In this document: positions 6,012-52,215 of the stretch, piece after piece | Numbering within the stretch: position 1 is the first letter of the stretch | Layout: the number at the start of each line of letters is the position of its first letter | DNA from: an uncultured Erysipelotrichaceae bacterium | Lineage (GTDB): Bacteria > Bacillota_I > Bacilli_A > RF39 > UBA660 | Direction of reading: 5' to 3' | Assembly: GCA_902794075.1 (NCBI GenBank) | Contig: CADBGE010000001.1 | Span: 76,603 to 140,602 of the forward strand | DNA: 64,000 nucleotides | Notes under the pieces: model-generated | What the model was told of the DNA's origin: nothing | What the model saw: the letters and a program-made list of their open reading frames with translations, nothing else | The model's database searches: none | Made by a program: the position numbers and the translations under genes

Positions 6012-7418
6012 TTAGCTATTGTCCTCTACGTTTTCGACACCCTTGTCCAATTCTTTCTGTTCACGGTTCATAAATGCAAATGTCTTAAGTTTCCAGGCAT
6101 GTGCAATTCCGTCTTCTTTCTTGATGACAATACCTTCTTGAGGTACATTATTTGTACAGTCAGGACTATTCATCTCCATGAAAAATTTCTCATCATCAGC
6201 AAGTGCAGAAATAAAGTTATCCCCATAATTTTCATCATTGAAAATATTAGGATAAAGATCGTATGCATACCCATAATAGAACTCATTAACAGGCTTAAGT
6301 CCAACTGTTTTACAATAATCCTGAACTTCCTTTGCACTATACTCATGAAAAACTCCATCAATATTTGTAGAAGTAATACGATATACAACAACCTTAAAGT
6401 TTACACCTTCCTTATAATCATCAACTGCGCGAGGAGGTCTACATCCATAATCATATCCCTTTTGGATATATTTACCATTAGGAAGATACCCAACAATTTC
6501 TGCATAAATTGTCATTCCTTTCTGTAGATATGGCTTCAAATAATCAAAACCATATTTCCAAACATCAACACTATAAAATCCTTCACCGGTTGTAGGATTA
6601 ATGTTTGCATTTTTAATGACAGACCTTGAACTATAGATATAGTCATAATCAGGATATGAATCTACATCAGTGTATACAGGCAATGTTCCGCCAAACTTAG
6701 TATATAACCAAGTTAGAATTTTGTCCCATTTCTTTCTTGGTTGTCTACACAATACTCGAGACGCAATCAAACTTGTACCATGCCACTTACTTGTGATACT
6801 AATAAGATCTGTTGGCTTAATTACCCAAGGCTCCTTACGAATCAAAATCGTATCATAATGGAACTTAAACTGTCCTTCAATCAACTTATTAAACCTCTTA
6901 AGCTTATTGTTACGATATTCTCCAGTATTGGTTATTGAAGTTACATTGGTCTGAACAACATATTTACGATTAATCCAAAATGTCTTTCCGTTATGTTCAA
7001 CTTCATCAAATTCAGTATTTATCTCAATGTCGGTAAGTTCAACATTTACAGAATCAAGAATCCAATCTTTAAGATCATCAATAGGCAACAAAAATCCTTC
7101 AGAAGCAAATCCGCCAAGCTTAATTGCTTTTACTCGTCCATTCTTATCAAAGAAGCCCTTCTTCTCAGGATTCCTATTCAATGCACTATTAGAATATAAT
7201 GACAAATACTCAAGAAGTGACGGATTTATTTGTGACATTGCAGGAAAATACACATAAATGCCTTTCTTCATGTCCGTTGAAACAATAATATTAAATCCAT
7301 CTACAACAGCAACCTGAAGCTTAGTGTATTCAGGATTTGGATGCTTTGCGAAATTATTAATCTCAACAATTTTTGCGAGATAATTTACATTTGCTCCCTT
7401 TGATTTTTGTAACTTCAT
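6012..7418 (-). CDS. RNA ligase (Rnl2 / DraRnl-like nucleotidyltransferase)
   Basis: 468 aa. Motif I SKWHGTS (compare T4 Rnl2 EKIHGTN), motif IV-like YAEIVGY and motif V-like EGIVIKKE...WKLK. An extra N-terminal domain is present. Confidence 0.65.
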   Translation of the reverse strand: MKLQKSKGANVNYLAKIVEINNFAKHPNPEYTKLQVAVVDGFNIIVSTDMKKGIYVYFPAMSQINPSLLEYLSLYSNSALNRNPEKKGFFDKNGRVKAIKLGGFASEGFLLPIDDLKDWILDSVNVELTDIEINTEFDEVEHNGKTFWINRKYVVQTNVTSITNTGEYRNNKLKRFNKLIEGQFKFHYDTILIRKEPWVIKPTDLISITSKWHGTSLIASRVLCRQPRKKWDKILTWLYTKFGGTLPVYTDVDSYPDYDYIYSSRSVIKNANINPTTGEGFYSVDVWKYGFDYLKPYLQKGMTIYAEIVGYLPNGKYIQKGYDYGCRPPRAVDDYKEGVNFKVVVYRITSTNIDGVFHEYSAKEVQDYCKTVGLKPVNEFYYGYAYDLYPNIFNDENYGDNFISALADDEKFFMEMNSPDCTNNVPQEGIVIKKEDGIAHAWKLKTFAFMNREQKELDKGVENVEDNS

Positions 7419-43275: not shown

Positions 43276-43537
43276 AATCTTAAAATGTTTAATTTAAATT
43301 AGTTAATATATAATATTTATGTTTATTGTAATTATAATATAGAAAAGTAAAACTAAAAAATTTCAATATTTTAGGATTCTTTTTTCATATGTTCCATTAT
43401 TTTTTACTATGTTGATACCGTTAAACGGATGATTAGATGAATGTCCTTGAAGATCGTAATAGATCATATCATCATTATCATTATGATTAATCATATTATC
43501 ATGAATATTGTTTACACAAGTTAATTTTTAATTTTAG

Positions 43538-43609
43538 TTGCCTCGCCAGGATTCGAACCTGAACCAACAGCTCCAAAAACTGTTGTGCTTACCGTTACAC
43601 CATGAGGCA
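43538..43609 (-). tRNA. tRNA-Gln(TTG)
   Basis: 72 nt. Acceptor tgcctca/cgaggca, D arm gtgt-aacggtaa-gcac, anticodon arm acagt-ttTTGga-gctgt, T arm tcagg-ttcgaat-cctgg. Confidence 0.85.
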
Positions 43610-43620
43610 AAATAAAAAAT

Positions 43621-43815
43621 GTGAGTAGATTTACGAGCTACGGACTGTGAAGGATTTATGAACTTATCAACCTTCTCTGTTGCGTTGCCTCTTATGGCCT
43701 CTCACGATAACCAACACGTTTCATCAAGCGAGGATATATTCTCCAGTCTACATACAATAATTACACCGGTTCATTATCATACTTACACTGATCCTACTCA
43801 GTGGTCTATACTCAC
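43621..43815 (-). ncRNA. structured non-coding module (about 195 nt) closed by a terminal helix
   Basis: No credible ORF here. gtgagta (43621-43627) pairs with tactcac (43809-43815), and internal hairpins are present. Lies between the GIY-YIG gene and tRNA-Gln. Strand inferred from context. Confidence 0.3.
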
Positions 43816-43919
43816 ATTTTATATTTTCCATAATATATTCAAAGTGATGGTTAAACATCATCGCAAATTCACACGGATTAATACGATATCCTTTTAAGAC
43901 AAGTTGCTATATTATGGAT

Positions 43920-45035
43920 TTATTTTTTAAATGGTTTTCCAAATTTCCAACCATTATTTAAATATTCTTCAAATTTTTCTTTCGGTAATCTTATTACTTC
44001 ATCATCTTTATACATCCATTTTCTACCTTTATGTGGACTTGTTCCTTTTTGTTTCCAATGTTTATTTTTGTTTACTCCAACAAATTCTCCAGATATATAT
44101 CGTTTATCTGTTTTATCAACAAAAAATGTATTACCATTATTATCTTTAACGGCTACTTTATTTTTCATATATTCATAATCATTATTTCTAAATTTGATAA
44201 TTTCACCGGTTTTAAATCTTGGATCATTTTTATTAACTAATCCTAATTTATTTCCATTCTTGTCTATGGCAGGTATTTTGTTTTTGTAATATGATACAAA
44301 TTCACCAGATATATATCGTTCGTCTGTTTTATCAACAAAAAATACATTACCATTATTATCTTCAACAAGGATATGTGTTTTATAAAAATTACTATAATCT
44401 TTTTGTGACCCAATTTTTCGTTCAATTTTATTTTCTGTTTTTTCAGTTCGACCAATTTTATATCCTTTATCTAAATAATACTGTAATTTATCTTTTTGAA
44501 TAAATTTTGTTTCATCATCATTATGAATCCAAACTTTATTACTTGATGCAATTTTATGTTTTGTAGTGTCATTAACTTTAAAACCTTTGTTCCATCCATT
44601 AGATAAATATATTTCTAAATCTTCTCGTTTTATTCTTTTATTTATATAAACATTATTTTCAATTTTATAAATACAAACAGTATTATATTGAGAATTTTTT
44701 TCTCCTTTTTGTTTTTCAGAATTAATTTGTCCAATATGTTTTAACAGTTCTTCATCTAAATAATAACCACCAGGAACCATATTATAACAATTATTATCAT
44801 TAACTAATTCTTCTGTTACAATAGATTTTTCAAGTTGACAAAGCTCATTCCAATCATTACAGTATTGTATAATTTCTTTAGTAAAATTTTCTATACCGTA
44901 TTTTTTATAAGCCGCATGTAATCGTTTTCCAGAACCCATGTACCCATCATCTAAATTTGATGTTTTGTGAATTCCGTAATAAAAATGATTATTTACATTA
45001 TTTGTTATTTTATATAAATAAAAATATGTTTTCAT
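43920..45035 (-). CDS. GIY-YIG homing endonuclease (Seg-like)
   Basis: 371 aa. N-terminus YLYKITNNVNNHFYYGIHKT...GYMGSGKRLHAAYKKYGIENF is a GIY-YIG module. The C-terminal half is repetitive (FFVDKTDxRYISGEFV). Embedded in the tRNA array. Confidence 0.8.
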   Translation of the reverse strand: MKTYFYLYKITNNVNNHFYYGIHKTSNLDDGYMGSGKRLHAAYKKYGIENFTKEIIQYCNDWNELCQLEKSIVTEELVNDNNCYNMVPGGYYLDEELLKHIGQINSEKQKGEKNSQYNTVCIYKIENNVYINKRIKREDLEIYLSNGWNKGFKVNDTTKHKIASSNKVWIHNDDETKFIQKDKLQYYLDKGYKIGRTEKTENKIERKIGSQKDYSNFYKTHILVEDNNGNVFFVDKTDERYISGEFVSYYKNKIPAIDKNGNKLGLVNKNDPRFKTGEIIKFRNNDYEYMKNKVAVKDNNGNTFFVDKTDKRYISGEFVGVNKNKHWKQKGTSPHKGRKWMYKDDEVIRLPKEKFEEYLNNGWKFGKPFKK

Positions 45036-45095
45036 AATTAAAATCCATTAACCATTTATATATATAAAAATAAAATAATTAATGAAATAATTTTG

Positions 45096-45181
45096 TACCG
45101 GGAACAGGAATTGCACCTGCACTTCCTTCACAGGAAAACAGATTTTAAGTCTGTCGCGTCTACTTGTTTCGCCATCCCGGC
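45096..45181 (-). tRNA. tRNA-Leu(TAA), class II, non-canonical D and T loops
   Basis: 86 nt. Acceptor gccggga/tcccggt, anticodon arm acaga-ctTAAaa-tctgt, 17-nt variable arm. T loop is tgcaatt and the D loop aaacaagtaga lacks GG. Confidence 0.75.
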
Positions 45182-45195
45182 AGAGAATATTTTAG

Positions 45196-45267
45196 AGCCG
45201 CTACTCCGAATCGAACGGAGATCTCATGATTACAAGTCAAGCGTAATAACCTTTATACTATAGCGGC
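45196..45267 (-). tRNA. tRNA-Thr(TGT)
   Basis: 72 nt. Perfect acceptor gccgcta/tagcggc, anticodon arm cttga-ctTGTaa-tcatg (one U-U mismatch), T arm ctccg-ttcgatt-cggag. Confidence 0.75.
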
Positions 45268-45302
45268 AATTTATATAATTAATATAATAATGTTTTTATA
45301 AT

Positions 45303-45857
45303 TTATTCAAAGCATTCACTATATTTTTCAATATCTTCTACAGAAAAATATTTCTTATATTTCTCAAGAATTTTCAGTCCATGCTCATGAATATACTCAA
45401 GTAATGGATTTGAGTTCTTCAGTCCTCCTGATTCAAAATTATAAAAATATATTATTGCATCAAGATTATCAATAAAGTCACCTCTAACATCAATATCATT
45501 ACTAAATAGCCAATCAACAAAATCCTCATATAATTTATGATAACCATTCCAAGAACATATATTTCTATTCTTTCTATCTATATGTTTTGATTGATCCTTC
45601 ATTCTAATAAGATTTATTTCGTCATAACACAAAATTTCATCAAGTGCTATTTCAAAATTAAATTTAGAAAAAGGTCTTTTATCATTACTAAGATAAATGT
45701 GTATATGAGGTCTTTGCCTATCTCCGGCATTAGTTCCATGAACAGTAATATAATAATCTATTTTATTTAGTACAGGATATCCTATACTTGCCATTTCTAC
45801 TACATAATCCCATTCAGGATTGAACTGTTCATCCACGTATGTATTTAGATGTTTCAT
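45303..45857 (-). CDS. hypothetical protein with leader-like N-terminus
   Basis: 184 aa. Starts MKHLNTYVDE. Located between tRNA sub-clusters. Confidence 0.65.
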   Translation of the reverse strand: MKHLNTYVDEQFNPEWDYVVEMASIGYPVLNKIDYYITVHGTNAGDRQRPHIHIYLSNDKRPFSKFNFEIALDEILCYDEINLIRMKDQSKHIDRKNRNICSWNGYHKLYEDFVDWLFSNDIDVRGDFIDNLDAIIYFYNFESGGLKNSNPLLEYIHEHGLKILEKYKKYFSVEDIEKYSECFE

Positions 45858-45872
45858 TTTTATTATATTTTG

Positions 45873-45947
45873 TGGTCCCTGACGGCGCCGCCCCGTCCAC
45901 CCCGAAATTAAAAGTTTCGTGCTCTACTAATCATGAGCTAAGGAACC
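45873..45947 (-). tRNA. tRNA-Lys(TTT) with aberrant T loop
   Basis: 75 nt. Acceptor ggttcct/agggacc, anticodon arm cgaaa-ctTTTaa-tttcg. The T arm is gacgg-GGCGGCG-ccgtc (no TTC) and the D loop atgattagta lacks GG. Confidence 0.65.
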
Positions 45948-45953
45948 TATTTG

Positions 45954-46026
45954 AGCAGATGACGTGATTCGAACACGCAACTTTCAGATTGGAAATCTGA
46001 CGCTCTGCCAATTGAGTTACATCTGC
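45954..46026 (-). tRNA. tRNA-Trp(CCA)
   Basis: 73 nt. Acceptor gcagatg/catctgc, anticodon arm tcaga-ttCCAaa-tctga, T arm gcgtg-ttcgaat-cacgt. Confidence 0.85.
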
Positions 46027-46031
46027 AGCTG

Positions 46032-46115
46032 TGGGAGCGGGTCGACTCGAACGACCAGTCCAATTAAGGAATGGATTTACAGTCCATGCGGCTTCCAGTT
46101 ACCGGTTACGCTCCC
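46032..46115 (-). tRNA. tRNA-Tyr(GTA), class II
   Basis: 84 nt. Acceptor gggagcg/cgctccc, anticodon arm atgga-ctGTAaa-tccat, long variable arm, T arm ggtcg-ttcgagt-cgacc. Confidence 0.85.
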
Positions 46116-46130
46116 AATATTAAAGATTAG

Positions 46131-46296
46131 TCAGGTAAGATGGAATTGAACCACCACTAATATAAATTGATATTTTTAGATTTAGTACAATTAACATAAA
46201 CTACCAAATTCATATTACCTTTTATCCTTCCTGTACACACTATAGATAAAAACCTCCCATACCATCATGGGTGTGCTACCGTTACACCATTACCTG
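46131..46296 (-). ncRNA. tRNA-like gene with about 95-nt internal insertion, anticodon unassigned
   Basis: Perfect acceptor caggtaa/ttacctg, D arm gtgt-aacggta-gcac, T arm ggtgg-ttcaatt-ccatc. The anticodon-position hairpin cccat-gatggt-atggg has a 6-nt loop, and about 95 nt (two hairpins) lie between the variable-loop position and the T arm. Confidence 0.4.
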
Positions 46297-46301
46297 ATAT
46301 A

Positions 46302-46631
46302 TTATTCTTTAACGTCTTTAGACATAATAACTTCATCAGGATAAAATTCTAAAAATGTTTTAAGTACTTCATTATAAAATATATAAGTAACTAAGCCTTT
46401 TCTTGATGAAGTAATTGTTTTACTTAATGTGAAGTAATACTTTTCCGATTTGCCAATCATAGTCTTTCCAAGATCCCATACAATAATTGGTAAAACATTT
46501 CTATCGATCATATCAGAAATCTTTTTAATTATTTCATCAGATTTCATATTAGGTAAAGTACCATATATATGAATGATATTAGAACAATTAGATTTTGATT
46601 TTGTCTTAAATAATGAACTAAGAATATTCAT
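46302..46631 (-). CDS. hypothetical protein
   Basis: The track ORF 46302..46667 starts at a GTG that overlaps tRNA-Pro. The first ATG (MNILSSLFK...) is at 46631. Confidence 0.5.
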   Translation of the reverse strand: MNILSSLFKTKSKSNCSNIIHIYGTLPNMKSDEIIKKISDMIDRNVLPIIVWDLGKTMIGKSEKYYFTLSKTITSSRKGLVTYIFYNEVLKTFLEFYPDEVIMSKDVKE

Positions 46632-46652
46632 GATTAATTCTTTAAATATTTT

Positions 46653-46728
46653 TGGTAGGGTAAACACGGCTCGAACGTGCGACCTCTACATCCCAAATGT
46701 AGCATTCTACCTACTGAACTATTACCCT
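46653..46728 (-). tRNA. tRNA-Pro(TGG), CCA encoded
   Basis: 76 nt. Acceptor agggtaa/ttaccct, anticodon arm ctaca-ttTGGga-tgtag, T arm gcacg-ttcgagc-cgtgt, 3' ACCA. Confidence 0.85.
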
Positions 46729-46839
46729 TGGCGCCGCCTTACTTATATTTTTACATTCAGTATATATCCTGAACACTGGGGCCGTGCGGCATGTTCTTTA
46801 TGAAGCTTCTCCCCATCTATTGGCCGAATAGAGTATGTG

Positions 46840-46914
46840 CGGTGCGTACGGGACTCGAACCCGTGACCTCCTGCGTGACAGACAGGCATTCCAAACCAAC
46901 TGAACTAACGCACC
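46840..46914 (-). tRNA. tRNA-Asp(GTC)
   Basis: 75 nt. Acceptor ggtgcgt/acgcacc, anticodon arm cctgt-ctGTCac-gcagg, T arm acggg-ttcgagt-cccgt. Confidence 0.85.
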
Positions 46915-46920
46915 AAAATA

Positions 46921-46988
46921 TGTTTGATTTATCATCGTGCTACCGTTACACTAAGGAGTCGAACCTAATCTTATGATATAATCAAACA
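46921..46988 (-). ncRNA. permuted tRNA-like element: long closing helix + T arm + D arm, no acceptor stem
   Basis: Minus-strand RNA: tgtttgattatatcat-aaga-[ttagg ttcgact cctta]-[gtgt aacggta gcac]-g-atgataaatcaaaca. The ends pair over about 15 bp. The D-arm sequence is identical to that of element 46131..46296. Confidence 0.35.
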
Positions 46989-47019
46989 CCTTAAAAATTC
47001 ACGTGAACTTTAATTTTTG

Positions 47020-47088
47020 TGGGAAACAGAGGACTCGAACCTCCTAATAGATTGTGATTATCTGCAGTTTCAAAATCTAATACCACCC
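47020..47088 (-). ncRNA. tRNA-like element (canonical T arm, weak acceptor, no D arm)
   Basis: The 3' part is ggagg-ttcgagt-cctct-gtttccc-a. An upstream 6-bp stem tagatt/aatcta encloses 20 nt beginning ttGAAac (Phe-like). The 5' strand gggtggt pairs only with wobbles. Confidence 0.3.
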
Positions 47089-47153
47089 AATTTTAAATTC
47101 AATTATGTACACTCGTTGAATACAAATTTTGTGTAGAATCCCATATTTAAAAG

Positions 47154-47227
47154 TTGCGTGGGGTCAGATTCGAACTGACGACCTTCTGCTTATGAGACAG
47201 ACGAGCTGACCACTGCTCCACCCCGCA
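47154..47227 (-). tRNA. tRNA-Met(CAT) (fMet-like body, bulged acceptor)
   Basis: 74 nt. TGCGGGGTGGAGCAGTGGTCAGCTCG... closely resembles the E. coli tRNA-fMet 5' half. Anticodon arm tctgt-ctCATaa-gcaga, T arm gtcag-ttcgaat-ctgac. The acceptor 3' strand ccc-a-cgca has one bulged A. Confidence 0.65.
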
Positions 47228-47245
47228 ATATATTTATCTATTTAG

Positions 47246-47332
47246 ATGCCACCGAAGGAATCGAACCTCCACCCGAATCACCAGGGATGTACCTGCGGGT
47301 TCCCATGTGTATGCAGCTAACATACGGTGGCA
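47246..47332 (-). ncRNA. tRNA-like element, 87 nt, anticodon unassigned
   Basis: Acceptor tgccacc/ggtggca and T arm ggagg-ttcgatt-ccttc are canonical. The remainder (gtatg-ttagctg-catac hairpin, acccg...cgggt helix) does not fit a D/anticodon arm layout. Confidence 0.35.
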
Positions 47333-47380
47333 ATATAAAAAATTGAAATCCCTATAGGTAAATGTAAATCATCATTCATA

Positions 47381-47450
47381 ATCAATAGATGGGATTCGAA
47401 CCCATAATCTCTGAACGTTACAGCGGTAATACCGTTTGCCTAACTAATGA
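47381..47450 (-). ncRNA. tRNA-like element, 70 nt, anticodon unassigned, embedded in a longer closing helix
   Basis: Acceptor tcattag/ctattga (one U-U mismatch) and T arm atggg-ttcgaat-cccat. No 5+7+5 anticodon arm found. Flanks pair: ttgaaatc (47343-47350) with gatttcaa (47473-47480), and aatgtaaat with atttacatt. Confidence 0.35.
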
Positions 47451-47490
47451 CTGGTGAACAATCATTTACATTGATTTCAATTTTTATTTT

Positions 47491-47610
47491 AAAGTTGAAA
47501 TTCTTGCAAGATTGAATGCTTATCTCGGGATGATCTTCTGTCATCTCTGAGGTTGATTTTCCCCAGAACCATTATCAGTGTTCTACATCCGCATTCAAAA
47601 TTTCAACTTT
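47491..47610 (-). ncRNA. structured spacer module closed by a 20-bp interrupted helix
   Basis: aaagttgaaatt..ttgaatgc (47491-47520) pairs with gcattcaa-aatttcaacttt (47591-47610). Two internal hairpins: 7-bp tctgggg/cctcaga, and gatga/tcatc with a 7-nt loop. Confidence 0.3.
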
Positions 47611-47614
47611 ATTG

Positions 47615-47689
47615 TACTGCCAACGGGACTCGAACCCGTAATCTCCGCCGTGAAAGGGCGACGTCCTAAACCAATTAGACGATGGCAGC
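47615..47689 (-). tRNA. tRNA-Glu(TTC)
   Basis: 75 nt. Acceptor gctgcca/tggcagt (G1-U72), anticodon arm tcgcc-ctTTCac-ggcgg, T arm acggg-ttcgagt-cccgt. Confidence 0.8.
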
Positions 47690-47919
47690 ATATTGAGATT
47701 TCACAGTAATCTCAAAACTGTATACGTGAGCAATTTGATATGGAGTGTACTGCTCATTGATTCATGTTGTGATCTCAACAGTTATCTCTCCTGAATGGAA
47801 CATTATCCGGAATAATTCCAAACCATCGGACCTTACTCAGATTTGAATTACATCAGGGATCTCTCAGGAAAATTTCCGAGGCTGATTTGTATCTGCAATA
47901 AAACCAGCAAACATTTTTG

Positions 47920-47991
47920 CGCTTGTGGAGAATTACGATATCCCGACCTAGTGGTTAACAGCCACTCGCTCTACCTCTGAGCTACACAAGC
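47920..47991 (-). tRNA. tRNA-Asn(GTT) with unusual T loop
   Basis: 72 nt. Perfect acceptor gcttgtg/cacaagc, anticodon arm agtgg-ctGTTaa-ccact. T arm gggat-atcgtaa-ttctc (A at position 54, 53-61 unpaired). Confidence 0.7.
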
Positions 47992-48000
47992 ATATTTCAT

Positions 48001-48103
48001 AATCAACCGAACTTATCGTCACTTCATCGATAACATAGCACTTTGTGCCTCATTTATCATTACAAACAGAAGTTAGACTAAACAAAACGTTTAACTGTTG
48101 ATT
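48001..48103 (-). ncRNA. structured spacer module closed by a 7-bp helix
   Basis: aatcaac (48001-48007) pairs with gttgatt (48097-48103). Internal hairpin ttatcg/cgataa. Lies between tRNA-Asn and tRNA-Val. Confidence 0.25.
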
Positions 48104-48114
48104 ACGAAGTTTTG

Positions 48115-48189
48115 TGGGCAATGTTGGATTCGAACCAACGACCCCTTGCTTGTAAGGCAAGTGCTCTGAACCAGCTGAGCTAATTCCCC
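48115..48189 (-). tRNA. tRNA-Val(TAC)
   Basis: 75 nt. Acceptor ggggaat/attgccc (one G-G mismatch), anticodon arm cttgc-ctTACaa-gcaag, T arm gttgg-ttcgaat-ccaac. Confidence 0.8.
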
Positions 48190-48276
48190 AGAAAAGTGGT
48201 GTCCTAACAATTAAACGACAAATTTTAAAAAATTTGATTGAGTTCATACCCCAATATCTCCACCAAAATAATTTAC

Positions 48277-48385
48277 GAAACTGACATATTGAAATTCTGT
48301 GCAGTAAACCATGAATTGTAATTTAGTACGTTCTACTAAGTGCACCAATTATTCTAAGGTTAATTTCAACTTAGGTATCAGTTTC
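48277..48385 (-). ncRNA. structured spacer module closed by an 8-bp helix
   Basis: gaaactga (48277-48284) pairs with tcagtttc (48378-48385). A nested 8-bp helix ttgaaatt/aatttcaa and the hairpin tagta-cgttc-tacta are also present. Confidence 0.3.
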
Positions 48386-48386
48386 T

Positions 48387-48504
48387 AAATGAGAATAAAC
48401 AATACTTACGAATTGCCACCAATAAGCATCGTATAAAGAAATAAGGGAGTCTATAAGGAGGCAATTTTCTCTGCTTATACTTGCCTTTCATTCTATTCTC
48501 ATTT
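48387..48504 (-). ncRNA. structured spacer module closed by a 10-bp helix, pseudoknot-like interior
   Basis: aaatgagaat (48387-48396) pairs with attctcattt (48495-48504). Inside, aattgcc...ataagca...ggcaatt...tgcttat are interleaved 7-bp complements. Confidence 0.3.
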
Positions 48505-48506
48505 TG

Positions 48507-48595
48507 CGGAAGCTGAGGGATTCGAACCCCCGGAACCTTGTTAAGGCTCGCCGGTTTTCAAGACCGGTGCAATCGACCAACTCTGCCAAACTTCC
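48507..48595 (-). tRNA. tRNA-Ser(TGA), class II
   Basis: 89 nt. Acceptor ggaagtt/agcttcc, anticodon arm ccggt-ctTGAaa-accgg, long variable arm, T arm ggggg-ttcgaat-ccctc. Close to E. coli tRNA-Ser(UGA). Confidence 0.85.
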
Positions 48596-48911
48596 GTAAT
48601 ATTAAATAATATAAAAATAAGTGTGTTGTTAAACCAAAAAATCCATAGTGTTCTTATGAACGTATGTGATCTTGACCAGAACAACTAAGGCCATTATATC
48701 ACATTACTCAGGTTCCGCCTGAACTGTTCCTGCAACCTCTTTCACTATTTGTCATGGATTTGATTTCAGCTACTTGAGACAGTTCTGATACTTTCAGACA
48801 TAGTTACAATTTACTCTTTAAAAGATGGACACTTTCAATCCCACTTCCTTATTTATATTATCGTATTCAGTATTTCCAACATGTCAAAGAACTTTGTTTT
48901 GTTGTTTTTAT
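48596..48911 (-). ncRNA. promoter-proximal leader RNA upstream of tRNA-Ser (paralogue of 50467..50720)
   Basis: No credible ORF here. Shares the 15-mer ccaacatgtcaaaga (48876-48890), ttgtcatggattt (48749-48761) and gcaacctc (48732-48739), in the same order, with the 50.5-50.7 kb segment. Preceded by a consensus promoter. Confidence 0.35.
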
Positions 48912-48917
48912 ATAATC

Positions 48918-48946
48918 AATATATAAATGATTATATGAAAATTCAA
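48918..48946 (-). promoter_or_regulatory. sigma-70-like promoter TTGAAT-N17-TATATT
   Basis: Minus strand: TTGAAT (48946-48941), 17 nt, TATATT (48923-48918). Drives the leader RNA / tRNA-Ser sub-cluster. Confidence 0.55.
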
Positions 48947-49004
48947 ACTTTTTTAATTTTTTGCACCCGAAGTGAAACTCGTCATCTCAGCAAAATATTT
49001 TAAG

Positions 49005-49079
49005 TGGACCCAGAGGGTCATGATCCCCCGACCTTGACATTATGAGTGTCCTGCTCTATACCAACTGAGCTATGGGTCC
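49005..49079 (-). tRNA. tRNA with CAT anticodon (Met or Ile2), unusual T loop
   Basis: 75 nt. Perfect acceptor ggaccca/tgggtcc, anticodon arm ggaca-ctCATaa-tgtca (27-43 mismatch), T arm ggggg-atcatga-ccctc (A at position 54). Confidence 0.65.
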
Positions 49080-49960
49080 TATTTCATTTTTCTACCTTTT
49101 ATCCAACCGTTGTTAATATAATCATTAAGTTCTTCTTTTTTAATTTTTATATTAATTGGTTTATTATTTTCATCAAATTTATAAATCCAGCATGTCCCGT
49201 ATTGTGAATTATTTTTACCCTTACCGTGATTTATTAATTTATATGTTTCTTTTTGTTTTTTAATTGATTCAGGTTTATGTTTTCTTCCAGTCCATATACA
49301 TTTTAATTCTCCAGATAAATATCTTGGATCATCAACTGAAACAGAATAATAATTTCCGTTTTTATCTTTTACAGATACTTTATTTTTTCCTAAAGCAATA
49401 TATTCACCAGATATATATCTTGGATCATCAACTGAAACAGAATAATAATTTCCATTTTTATCTTTTACTGTTATTTTGTTTTTTGTTAAAGCTTCATAAA
49501 TTTCTTTGTTATATTCTTCCTTTTTTATCATCAAATGTTCTCCTGTTGATTTTATTTTTACAGGAATTAAACCTTTTGTTGATGGTGTGTATTCACCGCT
49601 CATATATTTTGGATCATTTTTTGAACATCTAAAATAGTTTCCGTCTTTATCTTTTACAGGCACAGAACCATACGTATTCCATCCTTTTCCGCCACATTGA
49701 ATATTATAACATTCAGGATCATGAACTAAATCTTCTGTAACAATTTCAGATTCATATTGATATGCCTCATTTATAGTATTAAAATATTTTAATATTTCTT
49801 TACTAAAGTTTTCAATACCATATTTCTTATATGCATATTTTAATCTTGTGCCTGAACCCATATATCCATCATCTAAATTATCTGTACAATGTACACCATA
49901 ATAAAAATGATTATTTATATTATTTGTTATTTTATAGAAATAATTGTATTTTCTTTTCAT
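49079..49960 (-). CDS. GIY-YIG homing endonuclease (Seg-like), second copy
   Basis: The track ORF starts at TTG 49969. The ATG at 49960 gives MKRKYNYFYKITNNINNHFYYGVHCT...GYMGSG...YGIENF. The TAG stop abuts the tRNA 5' end. C-terminal repeats KDKNGNYYSVSVDDPRY(I/L)SGE. Confidence 0.8.
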   Translation of the reverse strand: MKRKYNYFYKITNNINNHFYYGVHCTDNLDDGYMGSGTRLKYAYKKYGIENFSKEILKYFNTINEAYQYESEIVTEDLVHDPECYNIQCGGKGWNTYGSVPVKDKDGNYFRCSKNDPKYMSGEYTPSTKGLIPVKIKSTGEHLMIKKEEYNKEIYEALTKNKITVKDKNGNYYSVSVDDPRYISGEYIALGKNKVSVKDKNGNYYSVSVDDPRYLSGELKCIWTGRKHKPESIKKQKETYKLINHGKGKNNSQYGTCWIYKFDENNKPINIKIKKEELNDYINNGWIKGRKMK

Positions 49961-50032
49961 AATGTTCAATGATATTTTATATATATTTATATTGAACTAT
50001 ATAATTAAAAATAATAAATTATTTCTAATTAG

Positions 50033-50106
50033 TAGGGATGATGGGTACTGCCCCCACTATCTCGAATTTATAAGATTCGCGCTTCTACTGTCTAAGCTAC
50101 ATCCCA
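50033..50106 (-). tRNA. tRNA-Ile(TAT) with aberrant T loop
   Basis: 74 nt. Anticodon arm cgaat-ctTATaa-attcg, acceptor gggatg/catccc (6 bp plus a terminal U-U). T arm gtggg-GGCAGTA-cccat, and the D loop agacagtag lacks GG. Confidence 0.6.
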
Positions 50107-50113
50107 ATGTTTG

Positions 50114-50187
50114 TGGAGCCATGGGGAGTCGAACCCCAGACCTTCTGCGTGCAAAGCAGACGCTCTACCAAACTGAGCTATGACCCC
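50114..50187 (-). tRNA. tRNA-Ala(TGC)
   Basis: 74 nt. Acceptor ggggtca/tggctcc with G3:U70, anticodon arm tctgc-ttTGCac-gcaga, T arm tgggg-ttcgact-cccca. Confidence 0.85.
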
Positions 50188-50190
50188 ATA

Positions 50191-50382
50191 AAAGTAAAAT
50201 GTTCTACACGCTCTGACTTTCACAGATACCCTCTAAAGATTTTAAAATCTCCCTTTAGCAAGGATTCCTTACCAAATATACAGATGCAACTCTGCCCCTT
50301 GCTTCCGCTCCATCACAGGCATACTTTATCAGCAGACGGTAAGATCTCTAATAAATTTCCTGTACCTCGAACTATTTACTTT
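50191..50382 (-). ncRNA. structured spacer module (about 190 nt) closed by an 8-bp helix
   Basis: aaagtaaa (50191-50198) pairs with tttacttt (50375-50382). Internal palindrome agattttaaaatct flanked by ctaaag/ctttag. Lies between tRNA-Leu(TAG) and tRNA-Ala. Confidence 0.3.
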
Positions 50383-50385
50383 TTG

Positions 50386-50466
50386 TACCCCATCTCCGAC
50401 TCGAACGGAGACCCAGTAAAGGATGGCTTCTAAGGCCACTGACTATACCAATTCGTCTAATGGGGT
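50386..50466 (-). tRNA. tRNA-Leu(TAG), class II
   Basis: 81 nt. Acceptor accccat/atggggt, anticodon arm gtggc-ctTAGaa-gccat, 12-nt variable arm, T arm ctccg-ttcgagt-cggag. Confidence 0.8.
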
Positions 50467-51417: not shown

Positions 51418-52215
51418 TCATATTTCATATAAATCTATCTTTCCAGACATTCCTTCAAGCATGTCAAGACAAACAAACTTACAGCCATGATCATACTCAT
51501 TTTCCATAATCATTGAGCCATTTGTTAGTAAAGCCTTTTCATGTTCTGTAAATCCATCATTAGGAACATATGTTTCATAATGCATATGAAAATGACCATG
51601 AAACCAATATTTAAGATTCTTGCATATGTCAAAATATACATTACTTAATATTAGTCTATCGTTTTTTGCTCGTATGTCATCATCATCTGACATCCATGAA
51701 ATACGTTCATATTTTGGAGAAACAAACATCGGAGCACTATGGCTTACAACAATATCAACAGAATCAAGAAGCATTGAATTGTTTTCATTTACAATGTTTC
51801 TGTCATATTCTTGCACAGATTCTTTAGACCACCAAGTTTTATTTTCTGTTCTATATATTCTATCAACAGAGGTAGCACCACCAATGCATAATATATTGTG
51901 ATTATTTATTGTCAATATTTCATAATCTTTAATGAAATGAATATTACTATAATAAACATCTAATGGTGTTTCTGAAGTAAAGAATATTGGATTATCGTGA
52001 TTACCACGAATAAGACACAACTGTATATTATGTTGAGATAACTTTTTATTCATTCTGTTAAATTCATCAACATAATAATTTAGTTTATGGAAACCCATCC
52101 CAATATCACCACAAGCAAATACATAACAATCATGAAGCTGCTTCTGGTGTATCACATAAAATATAAGTGGCCGGAAATTTCCATGAATGTCTCCTATAAA
52201 ATATGTTTTGTTCAT
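51418..52215 (-). CDS. calcineurin-like metallophosphoesterase
   Basis: 265 aa. Ordered motifs GDIHGN, GDIGMG, GNHDN, SHSAP and GHFHMH. Lies directly downstream of the interrupted tRNA-Arg gene. Confidence 0.8.
   Translation of the reverse strand: MNKTYFIGDIHGNFRPLIFYVIHQKQLHDCYVFACGDIGMGFHKLNYYVDEFNRMNKKLSQHNIQLCLIRGNHDNPIFFTSETPLDVYYSNIHFIKDYEILTINNHNILCIGGATSVDRIYRTENKTWWSKESVQEYDRNIVNENNSMLLDSVDIVVSHSAPMFVSPKYERISWMSDDDDIRAKNDRLILSNVYFDICKNLKYWFHGHFHMHYETYVPNDGFTEHEKALLTNGSMIMENEYDHGCKFVCLDMLEGMSGKIDLYEI

Follow-up and report, generated by a model that had tools for sequence, protein, structure and literature searches.

Three tRNA Genes With a Putative Compensated Elbow in the tRNA Array of a Lak-Like Megaphage

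Variant tRNA Genes and Their Elbow Nucleotides

The minus strand of a 64,000-nucleotide window (positions 76603-140602 of the 400-kb contig CADBGE010000001.1, 29% G+C, binned together with a 1.8-Mb genome of ~25% G+C) carries three transfer RNA (tRNA) genes, tRNA-Lys(UUU), tRNA-Leu(UAA) and tRNA-Ile(UAU), with unusual nucleotides at the elbow where D loop and T loop meet (Table 1). These are very likely working tRNA genes of a Lak-like megaphage, with an elbow that would be rebuilt from alternative, mutually compensating nucleotides: G19:C56 would be kept as the outer Watson-Crick pair, the intercalating base 18 would have changed from G to A jointly with a change from U to G at T-loop position 55, and the loop-closing U54-A58 would have given way to G54-G58 in Lys and Ile. 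Leu then has the pentaloop UGCAA, the other two have GGCRG, and these loops still fit the general T-loop motif; judged from the sequences together with published motif surveys, the tRNAs would have moved between known T-loop solutions while retaining the tRNA-specific contact C56:G19. We infer from the encoded letters, rather than from a structure, that the L-shape forms. A compensated A18/G55 and G54/G58 elbow that recurs in giant-phage tRNA arrays appears to be the best reading of the data, and searches of the accessible literature, extended to phage tRNAs with altered elbows, found no description of A18/G55 or G54/G58 covariation.

All three genes were recovered by a loop-blind scanner that requires four stems together with U33 and a purine at position 37, and ignores the sequences of the D loop and T loop; their places and loops, including the missing D-loop GG, agree exactly with an earlier sequence-only reading of this window. 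That reading had also called the acceptor and anticodon arms regular, and indeed 20-21 stem pairs are intact and the minimum-energy fold of each RNA is a cloverleaf. Stem lengths of 7/3-4/5/5 bp and a 7-nt anticodon loop with U33 and R37 mark all three as tRNAs, and their T stems are ordinary and G:C-rich. In the Lys gene, the acceptor stem GGTTCCT/AGGGACC is followed by A73 and encloses, after the spacer TA, the D arm (GCTC, atgattagta, GAGC), a single A, the anticodon arm (CGAAA, cttttaa, TTTCG), the variable region gggtg and the T arm (GACGG, ggcggcg, CCGTC); its anticodon loop, CUUUUAA, is ordinary. With the Rfam tRNA model RF00005, which has a curated gathering score of 29 bits, a search of the 64-kb window gave 52.4 bits for Leu and 43.3 bits for Ile; Lys was lost to the default filters in 64-kb and 13-kb searches, and reached 37.5 bits, again above the gathering score, only when a 101-nt stretch was searched alone. 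ARAGORN missed tRNA-Ile and also tRNA-Asn of the same array. The variant genes lie 5-14 nt from canonical tRNAs of the array and are the only tRNAs on the contig for AAA, UUA and, with anticodon UAU, AUA; among the codons of the contig, AAA, ATA and TTA rank 2nd, 7th and 10th (58, 38 and 31 per thousand). In addition to tRNA-Ile(UAU), the array contains a CAU tRNA (49005-49079) that resembles lysidine-type tRNA-Ile2; if it is of this type, the array would have two AUA decoders.

In the canonical elbow, G19:C56 forms an exposed Watson-Crick pair, U54-A58 closes the T loop, and G18 is stacked between positions 57 and 58 and bonded to Psi55 (PMC4810234). The conserved RF00005 elbow set (G18, G19, U54, U55, C56, A58) is not preserved here: position 18 is A and position 55 is G in all three tRNAs, and among them Lys and Ile only have G54/G58 in place of U54/A58. 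This numbering follows the Rfam alignment, in which GGUA of the model stands opposite AGUA of the Lys D loop, so that the single G of this loop is read as G19 and the preceding A as position 18. The T loops had previously been described as degenerate; they retain C56, a purine at position 57, the flanking pair G53:C61 and the length of 7 nt, together with G19 of the D loop. As far as the aligned letters indicate, the outer pair G19:C56 is intact, and the other two contacts are changed on both sides. The Lys T loop consists of 100% G+C in a contig of 29% G+C; the changes run against the AT bias.

Because A18 and G55 are encoded, Gm18 and Psi55 are impossible in all three tRNAs, and G54 and G58 likewise preclude m5U54 and m1A58 in Lys and Ile; with the modifiable bases replaced, the elbow is independent of the host modification enzymes. 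In the yeast tRNA SUP4oc, 45 of 47 variants mutated in the conserved tertiary pairs U8-A14, R15-Y48, G18-U55, G19-C56 and U54-A58 were completely non-functional (PMC4117946); since single changes in these pairs abolish function, it is understandable that only paired changes are seen here. Alternative T-loop sequences are known from other RNAs. The T-loops of flavin mononucleotide (FMN) and cobalamin riboswitches follow YGNRA, mostly UGNAA, with an almost exclusively adenosine insertion between bases 4 and 5; the tRNA T-loop is UUCRA with an inserted G, and a T-loop of ribosomal RNA (rRNA) is GGAAG (bioRxiv 10.1101/2022.12.26.521914). At the sequence level, the variant tRNAs, all with A18, belong with these motifs: Leu (UGCAA) and a tRNA-His of the same contig (UGCGA) fit the YGNRA class, and Lys and tRNA-Phe (both GGCGG) as well as Ile (GGCAG) resemble the rRNA type.

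Two further tRNAs of the array, tRNA-Asn(GUU) and the second CAU tRNA, had been noted for A54, which is present; both also have U58, which had been omitted, and they carry the 54:58 pair with its sides swapped. As a separate observation, tRNA-Asn (47920-47991, minus strand) apparently has U53-U61 in place of G53:C61, and its minimum-energy fold shows a 4-bp T stem and a 9-nt loop.

Table 1. Features of the window and the contig discussed in the text; positions refer to the window unless marked as contig positions.
Feature	Position	Strand	Elbow nucleotides or loops	Remarks
tRNA-Lys(UUU)	45873-45947	-	A18 G19; T loop G54 G55 C56 G57 G58 C59 G60	21/21 stem pairs (loop-blind scan); discriminator A73; CCA not encoded
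tRNA-Leu(UAA)	45096-45181	-	A18 G19; T loop U54 G55 C56 A57 A58 U59 U60; D loop aaacaagtaga, T loop tgcaatt	class II, long variable arm; 20/20 stem pairs; G1-U72
tRNA-Ile(UAU)	50033-50106	-	A18 G19; T loop G54 G55 C56 A57 G58 U59 A60; D loop agacagtag, T loop ggcagta	20/21 stem pairs; U1-U72 mismatch
tRNA-Asn(GUU)	47920-47991	-	A54...U58; T loop atcgtaa; normal GG	RF00005 54.1 bits
Second CAU tRNA	49005-49079	-	A54...U58; T loop atcatga; normal GG	RF00005 56.4 bits
tRNA-Thr(UGU)	45196-45267	-	canonical (GG / ttcgatt)	14 nt upstream of tRNA-Leu; internal control
tRNA array	43537-50466	-		17 tRNAs and tRNA-like elements; ARAGORN, RF00005, loop-blind scan
Two GIY-YIG homing-endonuclease genes	43920-45035, 49079-49969			interrupt the tRNA array
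184-aa open reading frame	45303-45857	-		function unassigned; located between tRNA-Thr and tRNA-Lys, separate from the tRNA feature
Candidate RNA ligase	6012-7418	-		PHROG 968 match (E = 7e-35)
Calcineurin-type metallophosphoesterase	51418-52215	-		directly beside the tRNA array; candidate RNA repair
RtcB ligase	contig 259962-261077			elsewhere on the contig
tRNA-His(GUG)	contig 323807-323879	-	D loop agtAGtta, T loop tGCgatt	G-1 encoded; C73
tRNA-Phe(GAA)	contig 323450-323523	-	D loop aacttAGtaga, T loop gGCggaa	A8, G37
tRNA-Trp(CCA)	contig 323635-323707		G18-A19 with U55-U56 (A19:U56)	

Covariation Across Phage Cloverleaves

For comparison, the bin genome was pooled with 74 loci. These comprise contigs from IMG/VR and JGI, retrieved with the Lys anticodon arm and with one of the array's tRNA-like elements, as well as the Prevotella megaphage Lak-A2, the 462-kb phage LR756500, and the complete tRNA arrays of two megaphages of ~410 kb from IMG/VR. 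This set yielded 403 distinct loop-blind cloverleaves with G53:C61, in which the presence or absence of dinucleotides was counted; the tail of the D loop varies from 2 to 6 nt. G55 occurs in 22 cloverleaves belonging to 14 anticodon classes, and is followed by C56 in every case; A-G stands at positions 18-19 in all 22, and in 21 of them the whole D loop is free of GG. GG with U55-C56 is found in 350/403. The joint loss noted earlier exceeds chance by far, as G55 co-occurs with absence of GG (Fisher p = 2e-22, not corrected for relatedness). The outer pair covaries in Watson-Crick fashion as well: G-A in the D loop accompanies U-U in the T loop 14 times, G-U accompanies U-A three times, and G-C accompanies U-G twice. 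Positions 54:58 are U:A in 373 cloverleaves, G:G in 18, A:U in nine and otherwise in three, and swaps are also seen at 8:14 (A:U 12 times, C:C five times). Positions that do not touch would not be expected to covary, and the covariation of 18/55, 19/56 and 54/58 suggests that these contacts still form.

The same evidence bears on whether the tRNAs have an elbow at all. An elbow-less tRNA, with D and T loops that do not interact and a floppy corner as in type II mitochondrial tRNAs, would agree with the absence of GG and UUC from the three genes, and such tRNAs can function, as mitochondrial type II tRNAs and tRNAPyl do without these motifs (PMC7609411). If the contacts were lost, tight covariation of 18/55, 19/56 and 54/58 would not be expected, and orthologues would not switch both partners together; the retention of G19, C56, R57, G53:C61 and the 7-nt loop also sets the phage tRNAs apart from the mitochondrial type, in which the G19:C56 pair and the loop size are not maintained. 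An elbow-less state is highly improbable; from the earlier suggestion of an altered or absent elbow, the alteration stands and the absence, as in some mitochondrial tRNAs, falls away. A role outside translation is equally hard to uphold. Staphylococcal non-proteogenic tRNAGly has G55 and no pseudouridine (PMC7826273), and the phage variants could, like this cell-wall tRNA, be kept off the ribosome or EF-Tu; the staphylococcal tRNAs, however, lose G18G19 without keeping G19:C56 and represent a single isotype, whereas G55 is spread here over at least 14 anticodon classes with G19:C56 kept and T stems that are G:C-rich, and the contig has no other tRNAs for the very frequent codons that the variants read. 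It would be most surprising if these were non-translational tRNAs.

Several observations from the pooled set concern other core positions. One of the three exceptions at 54:58 is a tRNA-Pro(UGG) of LR756500.1 (locus L072), in which the T loop gtcgtgg combines G54 with U58. Five phage tRNA-Tyr(GUA) genes (L014, L026, L048, L056, L068) have C8 and C14 in place of U8:A14, another covarying core contact. Nine distinct phage tRNAs (L010, L012, L013, L017, L020, L030, L031, L035) have C55 in a tCCgaat-like T loop with a normal GG; position 18 apparently need not change when U55 is replaced by C.

Recurrence and Conservation of the Variant Elbow

Elsewhere on the contig, tRNA-His(GUG) and tRNA-Phe(GAA) carry the same A18-G19 / G55-C56 swap as Lys, Leu and Ile; the Phe gene was missed by ARAGORN as well as by the RF00005 genome search. 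The host-like contigs of the bin have canonical elbows only. The variants had been linked to the A-ending codons expected to be abundant in this AT-rich genome; the codons are indeed frequent, but a restriction of the trait to A-ending codons was rejected, as His and Phe share it.

In the two ~410-kb megaphages, whose tRNA arrays are ~88% identical, the variant occurs on Ala, Met, Leu(UAG), Glu, Tyr and Arg. The tRNA-Tyr(GUA) genes, which are syntenic between the two, combine gagtGGtcaaa with tTCaaat in one phage and gagtAGacaaa with tGCaaat in the other, and the D, anticodon and T stems of this pair are also changed in compensated fashion. Between the same two phages, the A18/G55 tRNA-Leu(UAG) is 100% identical and the A18/G55 tRNA-Met 98.8% identical; conservation so far above that of the surrounding DNA indicates purifying selection on these sequences. 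A tRNA-Lys(UUU) family that is widespread in gut-phage contigs shares the anticodon arm of the window's gene and has two swapped core pairs, A8:U14 and, in its GUCAGUA T loop, G54...G58; GG is combined with U55 in nine distinct members, and AAG with GGCGGUA in one. Across the ten sequences, all stem cells are paired and 9 pairs are doubly changed, a result reached by 0/500 shuffles. The family (loci L015, L016, L019, L020, L022, L027, L028, L030, L035, L036 and L010) is carried by viral contigs of 100-230 kb and also by GenBank MT835539.1; the L010 copy was not called by ARAGORN. In LR756500, a tRNA-Lys with agatAGta and tGCaatt adjoins the phage's own transfer-messenger RNA (tmRNA) gene, and Lak-A2 has canonical elbows except for one A19:U56 tRNA-Arg.

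No close relative of the array was found in the collections searched. Lak-A2 contains no Lys homologue; the exact Lys T arm had 2 matches in IMG/VR, both non-tRNA, the Lys pattern with free loops had 0 matches in JGI metagenomes, and the Lys tRNA was not found in 200 relatives of the bin. For Ile, no phage homologue was found in GenBank, and a pattern search with its anticodon arm gave 0 matches. The nearest GenBank homologues of Leu are tRNA-Leu genes of crAss-like phages with canonical GG/TTC elbows. All fetched loci, compared to the contig by blastn, gave tRNA-sized matches only.

The conservation of the elbow in other phages also weighs on the possibility that the three genes are pseudogenes decaying in a redundant tRNA array, which the sequence-only reading had left standing. 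Low or filtered-out scores with the general tRNA model, the 1:72 mismatch of Ile and several broken-looking tRNA-like elements in the same array would be in keeping with decay. Decay would hardly leave 20-21/21 stem pairs and the identity features intact, confine the changes to partner positions and drive them against the AT bias, nor would it strike the contig's only tRNAs for the high-use codons AAA and UUA and (with UAU) AUA; related phage tRNAs show this elbow with conservation and compensatory changes, and pseudogenes are very unlikely.

Some points weigh against a compensated elbow in working tRNAs. The A numbered 18 is placed by alignment and by homology of D-loop lengths, not by structure. 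The loci were seeded from the array itself and the sequences are non-independent, so that the p-value overstates the number of independent events. The sole CCA-adding enzyme of the bin is encoded on a different contig and none on the phage contig, which also has no match to PF00133 or PF00152 (Ile/Leu-type or Lys-type synthetases); host enzymes must accordingly be assumed to accept the variant elbow, and acceptance by the host synthetases, EF-Tu, the CCA-adding enzyme and the ribosome is an extrapolation from the genes. Ile(UAU) is the least secure of the three, with its U1-U72 mismatch and an RF00005 score rated the lowest among them. Finally, the collections searched contain no close relative of the array, and conservation is shown for the class of variant tRNAs and not for these three genes.

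Possible Reasons for the Replacement

As selective reasons for a compensated elbow, we favour the stability of an unmodified elbow, or else near-neutral compensatory drift, over evasion of a host factor. Mutational drift alone would be an incomplete answer, since the changes raise G+C in an AT-rich genome; stabilizing an elbow without reliance on host modification is plausible. Evasion concerns the reason for the change and not the structure, and is compatible with a compensated elbow: the variant would conceal the tRNAs of the phage from a host factor recognizing the canonical corner, such as a tRNA nuclease or defence effector. Sequence changes are known to let phage tRNAs escape tRNA nucleases (PMC10264068, PMC11464382), and recognition by the PARIS nuclease AriB involves D-loop U16 and further parts beyond the anticodon arm (PMC12409363). 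The contig encodes candidate RNA-repair genes, RtcB and a PHROG-annotated RNA ligase (an open reading frame with no Pfam match), an acceptor-less RNA with canonical elbow in the same array could serve as a decoy, and the increase in GC would also agree with evasion. On the other hand, no nuclease specific for positions 18, 54 or 55 was identified here, the variant isotypes differ between phages, which argues against one isotype-specific nuclease, and most tRNAs of each array are canonical, with an ordinary anticodon loop in Lys; evasion is rather unlikely to be the reason.

A broader proposal, somewhat more doubtful still, is that giant phages of gut and rumen keep a second encoded "elbow code" (A18-G55, G54-G58) that would make selected tRNAs invisible to a host system reading or cutting the canonical GG/T-psi-C corner and independent of TruB, TrmA and TrmH, complemented by acceptor-less decoys with a canonical elbow and by RNA ligases for repair. 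If this were true, the elbow would join the anticodon loop as a battleground between phages and bacterial tRNA-targeting immunity.

Genomic Setting of the tRNA Array

The contig is that of an uncultivated giant phage from gut or rumen, a Lak-like megaphage. The best DNA match is Lak-A2; proteins encoded in the window include T4-type topoisomerase II subunits, NAD ligase, a sigma factor and tail-fibre-like proteins, and a tmRNA is also present. Within the array, 12 of the 17 tRNAs have a canonical elbow. A Pfam search with the 184-aa open reading frame of the array gave no match; a 73% identical copy lies between different neighbours in an unrelated 193-kb viral IMG/VR contig, and the open reading frame looks like a mobile gene, as do both GIY-YIG genes of the array. 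A scan for promoters and terminators performed no better than shuffles. The bin does not contain the tRNA-Lys(UUU) of the host. Phage-encoded orthogonal synthetase pairs were considered and rejected, since PF00133 and PF00152 had no match on the contig.

Three regions of the window (46131-46296, 46921-46988 and 47020-47480, minus strand) contain tRNA-like elements in which the T arm is of textbook form but the anticodon arm or D arm is abnormal or absent. Among these is a T-loop/D-arm module that has no acceptor; its core pattern was found again in 3 stretches from IMG/VR and 23 from metagenomes. A second phage-like contig of the bin (43.8 kb, 33.6% G+C) encodes ~20 tRNAs, including a CUA-anticodon (amber suppressor) tRNA and a tRNA-Arg(ACG) with A19:U56; it may come from another phage with a recoded stop codon.

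Implications

Few nucleotides in biology are as invariant as G18, Psi55, T54 and A58. If the compensated reading holds, phage arrays would provide a natural and repeated replacement of two of the three elbow contacts, compensated each time, and a tRNA T-loop could take the sequence solution of riboswitch and rRNA T-loops. Bacterial translation can probably make use of tRNAs unable to acquire T54 or Psi55, and orthogonal or modification-independent tRNAs could be built with the variants as scaffolds. Phage tRNAs are under-counted by the standard finders: Ile and Phe escaped ARAGORN, and Lys and Phe were lost by Rfam under its default filters. Should the change prove defensive, the known conflict between phage and host over tRNAs would reach beyond the anticodon loop to the elbow.

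Comparison With Known Systems

With canonical tRNAs (RF00005 and the 25 tRNAs of phage T5), the variants share 7/4/5/5-bp stems, 7-nt anticodon and T loops, U33 and a purine at position 37, as well as A73, G53:C61 and G19:C56; the T5 tRNAs all have G18/U55 and U54/A58, in contrast to A18/G55 and G54/G58 in the variants of the window. The arrays of T5 and T4 likewise contain homing endonucleases and tRNA-like RNAs among their tRNAs; stable tRNA-like RNAs of unassigned function are annotated inside the T5 array, a parallel to the tRNA-like elements found here. An elbow changed on both sides also occurs in T5, where tRNA-Ile(GAU), or tRNA-Ile1, has A19:U56 (D loop agcGAtcta, T loop ttTaaat). According to the T5 record this tRNA gives an amber suppressor after replacement of its anticodon, so that a compensated elbow can be functional; in tRNA-Ile1, 19:56 is changed while 18:55 and 54:58 are unchanged.

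The closest sequence parallels to the variant T loops are found outside tRNAs. UGCAA of Leu fits the UGNRA form of the YGNRA riboswitch T-loops, in which G at position 2 and the inserted adenosine parallel G55 and A18, and GGCRG of Lys and Ile resembles the GGAAG T-loop of rRNA; riboswitch and rRNA T-loops dock to other receptors, whereas the phage motif sits in a tRNA and keeps C56:G19. A natural G55 is shared with staphylococcal non-proteogenic tRNA-Gly, which has a UGC/UGU T loop and no pseudouridine (PMC7826273); this tRNA differs in representing one isotype, in having no A18-G19 replacement, in its function in cell-wall synthesis and in its poor binding of EF-Tu. Type II mitochondrial tRNAs and tRNAPyl also do without GG and T-psi-C (PMC7609411), yet they have lost G19:C56 and vary in loop size; the phage tRNAs keep both, and their contacts covary. 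With defence-evading phage tRNAs, such as tRNA-Lys of T5 against PARIS, the window shares a phage tRNA-Lys(UUU) unlike the cellular one and an RNA-repair gene in the same genome. The known evaders, T5 against PARIS and anticodon-loop variants against PrrC-type nucleases, have changes in the anticodon arm and at D-loop U16, whereas the changes found here are in the elbow and the anticodon loop is standard.

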